DNA of 62,853 nt, the filler included, from Rhabdomonas costata (lineage: Eukaryota), in the NCBI GenBank assembly GCA_019059605.1. It is 32 parts of 32 records of this genome, joined end to end, with 100 filler letters (N's around TTAATTAATTAA, not from the genome) between each part and the next. Parts side by side here need not be neighbours in the genome. Positions count along the whole stretch, not along the records: positions 5,906 to 7,773 come from JAHMHO010007970.1; 31 more parts are not named here. One strand, given 5' to 3'. Of this stretch, positions 5,798-7,874 are shown piece after piece. Position 1 is the stretch's first letter. Each line of letters opens with the position of its first letter. Under the pieces are notes generated by a model. It was not told the DNA's origin. It was given only the letters and a program-made list of their open reading frames with translations, and did no database searches. Both the position numbers and the translations under genes were made by a program.

Positions 5798-5949
5798 ACA
5801 AACAANNNNNNNNNNNNNNNNNNNNNNNNNNNNNNNNNNNNNNNNNNNNTTAATTAATTAANNNNNNNNNNNNNNNNNNNNNNNNNNNNNNNNNNNNNNN
5901 NNNNNGTTGGGGTGTCAGCGTCGTGCGGTCCGGCTATGGAAGCTGCCAT

Positions 5950-6260
5950 TGCCGACGCACCCAGACGGACACGGACTTCCCAGTTCCCGAGTTGAACCCC
6001 CTGGGGCCACATGCTGTTCAGCCGACCCACCCAAAAGCGCTCCCGGGGGGTGGCGAACAGCCGGAAGTTCTCCTTTGCGGTTCCCAGTCGTCGTCCGTGT
6101 AGTGCTCTTCGCGTAGGAGAAGGTCGAGGACTCGTTGGCAAGCGCGACATGCAGGAGGTCCTTGAGGGTCTTGCGCTGATGCCAGTCCTTCGCCCTTTCC
6201 CACATCCGCGCCGCAAAACAGGCCAGACTTGTTCCAAGTCGCCGAACGTTGAACTCCGCA
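5950..6260 (-). mobile_element. Degenerate GIY-YIG endonuclease fragment of a Penelope-like retroelement, antisense in a PCCB intron
   Basis: Frameshifted WERAKDWHQRKTLKDLLH ... FRLFATPRERFWVGRLNSMWPQG(F)N matches the PLE GIY-YIG C-terminal RExxWIxxLxxxxPxGLN pattern; homologous to 61200-61690. Confidence 0.65.
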
Positions 6261-6558
6261 CAGGTAACCACACTAGGACGAGCTGAGAAATCCATGCCAG
6301 TTTGCCAGCTTGCAGCTTCCAGTTGGCCACGTGTGACTCTCCCTGTTTTGGATGAAGAACGGAAGCTGCCGCAAAGGATGGCTGTCCTCTGAGCAGCGAG
6401 TGGTCTCAAGCGAAGCGCCCCGATCCCCAAAGCGTCAGTGGACCGTGAGGAACTGGAACGGACGCTCCTTTTGCCCAGCCTACTTCCGTCCATGCGAGTG
6501 GCTGTTCCCGCAACTGCGCCGCACAGCACCAAACGCCTCAAACCTCATTCACTTTCAG

Positions 6559-7185
6559 GTCCCTGCGCGGGAGGGGCTGTCTACAGCCCTGCAATGACCG
6601 ACTTCATTTTCATGGTTGACCAGACCTCATACATGTTTGTCACTGGGCCGGACGTGGTCAAGGCTGTGACGCACGAGGTGATGTATGAATGAAAAATGAA
6701 GCAGTATGGTAAGAGTGCAAGGAAGTATATTTTGTGGTAAAGACTGAATAGGATTTTGGATTTTGTTAGGCAGGAGATGGCGTGAGATGATGTTGAAATC
6801 TTGAGTTTCGACGCGTCTGAGCCGGAGAAATGTCAGTTTGATATCGGCCTGGTTGTTGTGCGCTTTGAACCTTTCTTTCTATGCCTTTTCCGGGTATTTT
6901 ACAGGAAGTCTCCCATGAGAGGCTGGGTGGCTCGAAGACGCACTCGCAAGTGTCCGGTGTGTGTCACGGCACCTTCAAGAACGATGTTGAGGCTCTGCAT
7001 GAGCTCAGGAAGTTCATGACTTACCTCCCCGGTTCCAACAGGGTGCGCTGGGTTCGATTTTGTTTCATTTTGTGGAATAGATGAACTCCTTTGTTTGCTT
7101 TTCATTTCACCCTCGTCCAAAGGACCCGTCTCCTGTGCTCCGAAACGGTGACCTCCGTCATCGCAGCTGCCATCACTTGGAGACG
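6559..7185 (+). CDS. PCCB: Propionyl-CoA carboxylase beta chain (partial, 3 exons)
   Basis: Exons 6559-6677, 6905-7042, 7123-7185; [52 protein letters not shown]. Confidence 0.93.
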
Positions 7186-7362
7186 GTAGTCTGCCTCTCC
7201 TCCCTTGATCTTCTTTTCTTGAATGGAGCGTGAGACGTGTGGTTTCCTCTTGTTTCCTCTTGTGCAGCGATTCTCGCCTTTATGCGGAAGCAGATTTCGT
7301 TTCCGTTCTTGCTTGTACCTTGGGCTTCGGTTTTGATAAGTGAATGAAATGACGTGAAAGAA

Positions 7363-7761
7363 GGAACGAAGGAGCGCAGCGACTGAGTGACCAGAATACT
7401 CAACTCATGCAGAGGACGAACGAGCTGATGCGAGTGAGGACGTCGAGAGGAACGAGCGGGTAGCGAGTGACGAACCAGTGAACGTAGCCGGGTAGCGGCG
7501 GAGTGAACCACCATGCAGAGGGAAGGATGCGAAGACCTGAGCATCCTGACCGTCTGAGTTCTGAGTTCACTCTTCTGAGTTCGTGAGTGGAAGCGCCTCA
7601 TGGCGGTGGAACGAACCAACATCATCAGAGGGAGCATGCGAGGTACCGAGCATGCGACCATGGCATTACAGTCATGGTGGATGAGCGTACCGACGTCAGT
7701 CGGGGAGCGAAGGAACAACGCATTTAGGAGGGATGGCGGAGCGTAGCGTAGACATCCCGAC
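7363..7761 (+). repeat. Cluster of nine hairpins built from tandem G.A mismatches (strand-specific structured element)
   Basis: e.g. G-GA-AC-GA-AG-GA-GC[GCA]GC-GA-CT-GA-GT-GA-C (7363-7391), GG-GA-AGGATGC-GA-AG[AC]CT-GA-GCATCCT-GA-CC (7520-7551), GG-GA-GCATGC-GA-GG[TA]CC-GA-GCATGC-GA-CC (7630-7659). Confidence 0.85.
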
Positions 7762-7874
7762 ATCCAACCCACCNNNNNNNNNNNNNNNNNNNNNNNNNNN
7801 NNNNNNNNNNNNNNNNNTTAATTAATTAANNNNNNNNNNNNNNNNNNNNNNNNNNNNNNNNNNNNNNNNNNNNG

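Follow-up and report, generated by a model that had tools for sequence, protein, structure and literature searches.

A purine-rich tract of 434 nucleotides (nt) in the genome of Rhabdomonas costata (GenBank assembly GCA_019059605.1), next to exons of a propionyl-CoA carboxylase beta (PCCB, carboxyltransferase) gene, was found to hold a series of hairpins in which Watson-Crick blocks alternate with G.A oppositions. The window, meaning the whole stretch of DNA analysed (62,853 nt), was not one chromosomal stretch and consisted of 32 contigs of 1863-1869 nt joined by linkers; the tract occupies positions 7340-7773 of the window, at the end of contig JAHMHO010007970.1. The tract is real and statistically extreme, and it arranges a known kind of non-Watson-Crick fold in a way not described before. 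Its hairpin structure goes far beyond chance and is confined to one strand, and on alignment it resolves into tandem units of ~107 nt, at least four in number, that have diverged from one another. The tract is tentatively read, at a little less than an even chance, as a fold-back minisatellite acting as single-stranded DNA (ssDNA).

The preliminary description of the tract, made from the sequence alone, had proposed nine hairpins built from Watson-Crick blocks and GA/GA or GNA/GNA mismatches. When each interval was folded from its ends, all nine parsed in this way, with Watson-Crick blocks of 1-7 base pairs (bp) interspersed with tandem G.A pairs and GNA/GNA zippers and with a few loop-adjacent mismatches. 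The G.A oppositions always fall within 5'-GA/5'-GA tandems or GNA/GNA triplets. The pair census over all nine hairpins is 54 G-C, 20 A-T, 46 G.A, 4 G.G, and 3 G.T, and the hairpins span 286 of the 399 bases of 7363-7761, with the loops GCA, GTA, TGAT, TCAT, GTCA, GTAC, GGGTA, and GGTAG. Class I (hp1, hp2, and hp3) has the core ...GA-NN-GA-GC[loop]GC-GA-NN-GA.... Class II (hp4, hp6, and hp8) opens with GTGA or GTGGA, carries a GNA/GGA zipper further in, finishes with GAAC, and closes each unit of the array. Class III (hp5, hp7, and perhaps hp9) has the form GG-GA-(6-7 bp)-GA-apex and is placed after a leader sequence. The hairpins are as follows.

7363 to 7391, + strand: hp1, class I, G-GA-AC-GA-AG-GA-GC[GCA]GC-GA-CT-GA-GT-GA-C; the apex GCGCAGC is a mini-hairpin motif
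7414 to 7441, + strand: hp2, class I, with six Watson-Crick pairs, three tandem GA, and the loop TGAT
7447 to 7473, + strand: hp3, class I, hp2 duplicated in tandem, with one C-G flipped to G-C and the loop GGGTA
7478 to 7508, + strand: hp4, class II, GT-GA-AC-GTA-GCCG[GGTAG]CGGC-GGA-GT-GA-AC
7520 to 7551, + strand: hp5, class III, GG-GA-AGGATGC-GA-...-GA-GCATCCT-GA-CC
7583 to 7616, + strand: hp6, class II, in the register of hp4 with AC/GT changed to GT/AC and one G.G mismatch
7630 to 7659, + strand: hp7, class III, a relative of hp5 with compensated changes
7677 to 7716, + strand: hp8, class II, extending the 7683-7710 given earlier, with ten Watson-Crick pairs, one GA, and two GNA
7727 to 7761, + strand: hp9, class III-like, with an outer stem GGGATG/CATCCC flanked by GA/GA and the apex motifs GCGGAGC and GCGTAGC
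7657 to 7678, + strand: plain Watson-Crick hairpin ACCATGGC...GTCATGGT midway along unit 3, sharing sequence with the feet of hp7 and hp8

The 3' arm of hp4, GAGTGAAC (7501-7508), is perfectly complementary to GTTCACTC (7565-7572), downstream of hp5, and in whole-tract folds the GAGTGAAC/GTTCACTC pairing gives an alternative long hairpin around hp5. A short degenerate array of TCTGAGT (five copies, 68% match) lies at 7553-7588, which is the sole pyrimidine-containing, non-hairpin part of unit 2.

Hairpins were counted under a strict rule that calls for an ungapped stem, a Watson-Crick-closed loop of 3-8 nt, at least five Watson-Crick pairs, and at least two GA or GNA elements. The tract gave seven such hairpins, all of them on the + strand, in keeping with the earlier claim that it is foldable on one strand only; hp6 misses the rule because of its G.G mismatch and hp9 because of a lone G.A. 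Dinucleotide-preserving shuffles did not reproduce this density, 1000 shuffles of the tract giving a mean of 0.019 strict hairpins with a maximum of 1. Shuffles preserving 2-, 3-, and 4-lets (500 each) gave means of 0.028, 0.036, and 0.058 and maxima of 1, 1, and 2. No strict hairpin was found in any of four other purine-rich 434-nt stretches of the window; with both strands counted together, the remaining 31 contigs held two in all, and unrelated metagenome loci (75,477 bases) also held two. A GA-to-GA spacing of 4 occurs 19 times in the tract against 6.8 +/- 2.5 in shuffles.

Minimum free energies were summed over the nine hairpins in isolation, giving -86.5 kcal/mol for the + strand and -51.0 kcal/mol for the - strand with RNA parameters, and -37.5 (+) and -27.9 (-) kcal/mol with DNA parameters. 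The fold obtained with RNA parameters is the GA register in 8 of the 9 hairpins, the apex of hp9 being different. Over the whole tract the energy signal is modest, and the G.A-register signal is very strong. Under the favoured reading, the purine-rich sense strand would fold alone into a chain of hairpins, and its C/T-rich complement would be unable to do so.

The units of the array start with a leader. The preliminary description had noted cat(g)cagagg before three hairpins, and the three copies are as follows.

7406 to 7415, + strand: unit leader CATGCAGAGG, exact, start of unit 1
7512 to 7521, + strand: unit leader CATGCAGAGG, exact, start of unit 2
7623 to 7632, + strand: unit leader variant CATCAGAGGG, start of unit 3

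A weaker version of the leader, CATTTAGGAGGG, is found near 7721. The leader positions give a period of ~100-108 nt, and the motif is not enriched outside the tract. Alignment of unit 2 (7512-7619) with unit 3 (7620-7719) has a z score of 6.4, and none of 300 shuffles was as good; the pairs u0-u1, u1-u2, u3-u4, and u0-u4 have z ~2.2, and the other pairs are no better than shuffles. Each unit holds two or three different hairpins, and the units are about half alike. A local, diverged array of ~107-nt tandem units agrees better with amplification in place than with the arrival of foreign DNA.

Related hairpins were compared arm by arm (hp1/hp2/hp3, hp4/hp6/hp8, and hp5/hp7). In class I, a G-C/C-G flip separates hp1 from hp2 and hp3, a C-G/G-C flip separates hp2 from hp3, and one A-T pair is present on both arms in hp1 only. 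In class II, hp6 departs from hp4 by A-T to G-C and C-G to T-A, and hp8 departs from hp6 by T-A to C-G. Between hp5 and hp7 of class III, a long-stem G-C becomes C-G (a change that RNAalifold counts too) and an apex A-T becomes G-C, with one A-T pair on both arms in hp5 only. In total, at least six stem positions are altered on both sides yet paired and two indels are paired; the sample is small, was aligned by block order, and carries no formal test. Two defects lack compensation and speak against co-variation: hp3 has lost its outer pair, and hp6 has a G.G. The changes support the earlier statement that structure rather than sequence is kept. When three units were aligned with MAFFT and passed to RNAalifold, unit 1 was misaligned and hp5/hp7 alone was recovered, with one compensated pair; a five-unit MAFFT alignment was uninformative.

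The form in which the tract would act was weighed between ssDNA, which is given close to an even chance, and RNA, which is given a rather low one. The preliminary description had named GC-GNA-GC mini-loops as very stable in ssDNA, and the motif GCGNAGC is present three times on the + strand (GCGCAGC at 7374, GCGGAGC at 7736, and GCGTAGC at 7741) and not at all on the - strand; the shuffle mean is 0.23, and 2 of 1000 shuffles reach three. The three exact copies stand at or next to hairpin apexes, and the mini-hairpin variant GCGNNAGC is absent from the tract. In the available text of PMC13037366, the melting temperature of d(GCGAAGC) is 76.5 °C compared with 39 °C for r(GCGAAAGC). Zippers of the GGA/GGA and GTA/GGA kinds with sheared G.A are described for the purine strand of human satellite III, and its pyrimidine strand gave no clear melting, in the part of PMC11014236 that was available. 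Among the 74 pairs of the Watson-Crick blocks none is G.T, and the three G.T oppositions all stand in the middle of GNA/GNA; RNA helices as diverged as these would be expected to hold some G.U pairs. The absence of G.T pairs, the GCGNAGC motifs, and the satellite III zippers together lean towards DNA.

The RNA alternative, possible but doubtful, is that the tract is a structured intronic RNA in the PCCB pre-mRNA, either offering proteins a binding platform through its hairpins, since many protein-binding RNA motifs hold tandem sheared G.A, or undergoing processing at the CAT(G)CAGAGG linkers. It is the sense (non-template) strand of PCCB that can fold, and because no later exon could be detected before the contig end at 7773, the tract is most simply intronic and in PCCB sense orientation. 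Sense-strand folding, the GA register that the RNA model recovers and the DNA model does not, and the conserved single-stranded linkers lean towards RNA, and so do the energy difference between the strands and the compensated changes. Against it, no Rfam family was found even at E up to 10. In the whole window nothing reached the gathering score, and at E up to 10 there were six chance-level rows, of which two (miRNA or lncRNA families) touch the tract; a row for the C/D family sR2 lies outside the tract (6348-6394), at 13.2 bits against a gathering score of 42. No canonical C box, taken as RUGAUGA, was seen by eye, no GNRA or UNCG loop is present among the hairpins, G.U would be absent from all 74 Watson-Crick-block pairs, and GCGNAGC apexes would be much less stable as RNA, going by the available text of PMC13037366. 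Of the origins named in the preliminary description, a structured RNA is the one that stays viable, because the foldable strand is the PCCB sense strand; no result speaks for an insert of organellar DNA or for a replicon of the ssDNA or rolling-circle type.

Several results weigh against a fold-back minisatellite acting as ssDNA. The DNA parameters leave hp1, hp2, and hp3 almost unfolded (-0.6 to -0.7 kcal/mol), and the whole tract folded as DNA is modest relative to shuffles (z = -1.97 on the + strand and -1.04 on the - strand); stability at the DNA level would therefore be based on published model oligos and not on computation on the tract. Folded as RNA, the whole tract has z = -2.48 on the + strand, with 1 of 100 shuffles as good, and -0.37 on the - strand, and since it is the transcribed sense strand that folds, RNA would suit these data about equally. 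A single copy is known, and it ends at a contig end of a fragmented assembly. Most unit pairs are weakly alike, and Tandem Repeats Finder gave no 107-nt period, only a 10-nt and a 7-nt micro-array. The favoured reading does not account for the regular positions of the GA/GA mismatches. Descent from a (GANN)n microsatellite is one idea for them that agrees with the spacing-4 signal; tetranucleotide-preserving shuffles do not fold, so such ancestry alone would be insufficient.

Under the favoured reading as a fold-back minisatellite, the + strand, once single-stranded, would snap into G.A-zippered hairpins. The single-stranded state could come from displacement of the non-template strand during PCCB transcription, which the GC skew (+0.21) and AT skew (+0.31) of the tract would aid, or could arise at a replication fork. 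The tract would then behave as do fold-back satellites whose purine strand self-pairs via G.A. Hairpins of this kind would favour slippage and local duplication of foldable units, by which an array of non-identical and equally foldable units could have grown in place. It is also possible that G.A hairpins on the non-template strand hold an R-loop open or pause polymerases.

The closest known kind, as judged by shared chemistry and strand asymmetry, is the purine-strand fold-back satellite. The Drosophila dodeca-satellite is one of these, and human satellite III, (ATGGA/GGAAT)n, is another. Like the tract, human satellite III is made of tandem repeats in which the purine-rich strand alone self-pairs, with Watson-Crick pairs alternating with sheared G.A and with GGA/GGA zippers (PMC11014236, in the part available). 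Self-pairing of the purine strand only is seen in the tract by computation. Fold-back satellites are long, high-copy arrays of near-identical 5-12-nt units in centromeric or pericentromeric DNA; the tract is not such an array and has ~107-nt units, in the intron of a housekeeping gene, with several hairpins per unit and co-varying Watson-Crick blocks. Integron attC sites and other recombination or origin sites that fold as ssDNA also keep the structure of one strand over its sequence, are functional as the folded strand, and occur in arrays. The attC sites are bacterial, are recognised via extrahelical bases and not via G.A zippers, and have gene cassettes between them; they serve here as an analogy only, and no integrase or comparable gene is visible near the tract. 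K-turn and box C/D RNAs resemble the tract in having tandem 5'-GA/5'-GA next to Watson-Crick stems, and the tract has seven CTGA words (the D box is CUGA). Unlike box C/D RNAs, it has no RUGAUGA C box, no TGATGA, and no Rfam match, and its hairpins (27-40 nt) are shorter than a guide RNA. DNA mini-hairpins of the GCGNAGC type are marked by extraordinary resistance to heat and nucleases, and the DNA parameters give hp1, which carries one at its apex, -0.6 kcal/mol. The natural examples quoted in the available text of PMC13037366 each occupy one site, in ssDNA phage origins, in a plasmid ssi signal, or in a phage N4 promoter, and the tract is a eukaryotic intronic array.

Nonconventional introns of euglenids were also compared. 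These are short hairpin-forming intronic elements thought to be similar to miniature inverted-repeat transposable elements; CAG is set 3 nt in from their 5' end and CTG 5-6 nt before their 3' end, with pairing beside both and a purine opening the next exon (PMC12501133, available portion). The surroundings of hp5 (7513 to ~7562) form one candidate match to this code, with nnn-CAG (7516-7518), CTG (7554-7556), a further 5-6 nt, a purine, and CAGA pairing with TCTG. Only 1 of 4 units fits, units 1, 3, and 4 having no partner CTG, and the other hairpins of the tract start with G(G)GA and end with GA(C)C without the CAG and CTG of these introns. Nonconventional introns have ordinary pairing, and no G.A register is described for them in that portion of PMC12501133. 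Purine-rich G.A hairpins are not mentioned in the available portions of two Euglena intron papers (PMC11170887 and PMC12501133), and a literature search on sheared-pair hairpins in Euglena or in satellites found nothing relevant.

The preliminary description had derived the tract from a mobile element or replicon, and the reading considered was a fragment or end of one with an ssDNA phase, either Helitron-like or rolling-circle, the relic of an ssDNA virus, or an organellar insert. This is improbable. The abrupt composition switch at ~7340, the ending of the contig within the tract as happens at repeats, and the strand-specific hairpins with GCGNAGC, a motif known from ssDNA phage origins (PMC13037366, available text), would suit it. 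Against this, the ~58 kb of other contigs in the window hold no second copy, only 10-12-nt chance words; an exact 22-mer of hp7 had no match in metagenome contigs or viral contigs; and low-stringency blastn against plasmids and phages gave no match. A class-III signature pattern matched hp5 and hp7 in the window, no viral contig, and 15 metagenome loci, where complementary arms were present in none of the 15, so those matches are chance. Elements of this kind are marked by Rep or helicase coding, by defined termini, or by an origin nonamer in a stem-loop; no Rep, helicase, or other coding signal was seen in the tract, whose 3' side is cut off by the contig end, so that the ends of an element would be out of view. 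The tandem units indicate local growth, and the G+C content of the tract (0.56) matches that of the rest of the contig (0.55), which gives no compositional sign of foreign DNA. In searches of the window, plasmids, phages, viral contigs, and metagenome contigs, the proposed ssDNA replicon and organellar insert were thus not borne out.

The sole long open reading frame (ORF) is antisense (7176-7772, 199 amino acids [aa]) and open at the contig end. It matched no Pfam family and had no relative in either protein collection searched (1.84 billion representative proteins), and its length within the tract is unremarkable; it was rejected as a gene. That the tract is the antisense of a protein-coding exon on the - strand is scarcely credible. 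The - strand frame over 7173-7773 slightly exceeds chance length, being equalled in 36 of 2000 shuffles, and the frame within the tract alone is reached by 324 of 2000 shuffles, and the Ser/Leu/Arg-rich product is what any C/T-rich strand would give. Hammerhead, small nucleolar RNA, spliced-leader (SL) RNA-like, G-quadruplex, and H-DNA readings were considered by eye and rejected, as their defining motifs are absent; the resemblance to SL RNA comes down to a 7-8-nt word.

The tract might also have no function, as a neutral, decayed (GANN)n microsatellite whose hairpins descend from quasi-palindromic words and whose arms are kept alike by repair in extruded hairpins, or as an assembly artefact at a contig tip. 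The enriched GA spacing of 4 (19 against 6.8), words such as GCGA/GAGC and GTGAAC, which self-pair in the GA-zipper sense, and the position at a contig end agree with this. The reading is quite improbable. Tetranucleotide-preserving shuffles give a mean of 0.058 hairpins against the seven observed, and the Watson-Crick blocks differ yet stay complementary, unlike what simple decay would leave. For the artefact version, an error tip of 434 nt ordered to this degree would be hard to imagine.

Known cases of fold-back DNA zippered by G.A are simple satellites at centromeres and single phage-origin sites. In the tract, the same chemistry appears as a set of differing hairpins with arms that changed together, in an intragenic position and on the strand exposed by transcription. 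A wider and unlikely reading is that the tract represents the first example yet seen of a group of nuclear elements, perhaps restricted to euglenids, selected for a G.A-zipper single-strand fold rather than for sequence. Such an element would be a sense-strand hairpin array of ssDNA or RNA, a platform for a purine-hairpin protein or an R-loop or replication-pausing module, and would evolve by compensated changes as structured RNA does. If the jointly changed G.A hairpins of the tract were confirmed, non-Watson-Crick G.A pairing could persist through evolution at a locus in a eukaryotic nucleus, and the tract would be a natural test case for ssDNA against intronic RNA hairpins as the selected form. 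The structure escapes standard inverted-repeat finders as well as DNA folding parameters, so genomes may hold more elements of this sort than have been counted.

The contig carries three PCCB exons on the + strand that match a 524-aa protein (P0002). The features of the contig around the hairpins are as follows.

5906 to 7773, no strand: contig with the hairpin tract, one of 32, ~1867 nt, followed by N from 7774
6552 to 6677, + strand: PCCB exon, tblastn, 93% identity to P0002 residues 179-220
6902 to 7048, + strand: PCCB exon (tblastn range; exon proper ~6905-7039), 90% identity to P0002 residues 220-268
7120 to 7186, + strand: last visible PCCB exon, 54% identity to P0002, with GTAGTC then at 7187
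7187 to 7339, + strand: opening part of the intron, rich in T (0.41), with purine 0.35
7340 to 7773, + strand: purine-rich tract with the hairpin array, purine 0.62, GC skew +0.21, AT skew +0.31
7774 to 7873, no strand: assembly linker (N run, TTAATTAATTAA, N run), non-biological sequence

The composition switch that had been placed near 7340 is borne out by the purine fractions on its two sides. A search for a further PCCB exon in 7187-7773 gave a best local score of 34 against a shuffle mean of 31 +/- 4, equalled by 77 of 300 shuffles, and a hidden fourth exon there found no support; a by-eye match of DSRLYAEADFVSVL to P0002 is not significant. The linkers, each an N run, TTAATTAATTAA, and a second N run, occur 31 times at a spacing of ~1968 bases. 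As the contigs are merely chained by them, adjoining regions of the window are unrelated loci. The tract thus reaches the end of its contig, with N from 7774, a caveat missing from the preliminary description. Any feature less than ~100 nt from a linker is likewise at a contig end, and the contigs in the window are apparently ordered by size.

The third PCCB exon (window 7120-7191) is 54% identical to P0002 compared with ~90% for the preceding two, which may reflect a linker region that varies or a gene copy that is diverging. On the - strand at 5915-6544, before the first PCCB exon that is visible, there are long open frames of 209 and 183 aa. GTTTCCTCTT is perfectly repeated in direct orientation (2.2 copies, 7242-7263) within the T-rich stretch that opens the intron, and this repeat ends at a possible acceptor-like ...TGTGCAG site at 7267. 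On another contig (18311-18394, + strand), the translated RSMKVHDPNKLKSRGIMISTCKHANIPI gives a short match to the C-terminus of the PCCB relative, ...KKHSNIPL, with E = 0.10, and may be the last exon of this PCCB or of a related carboxyltransferase gene.

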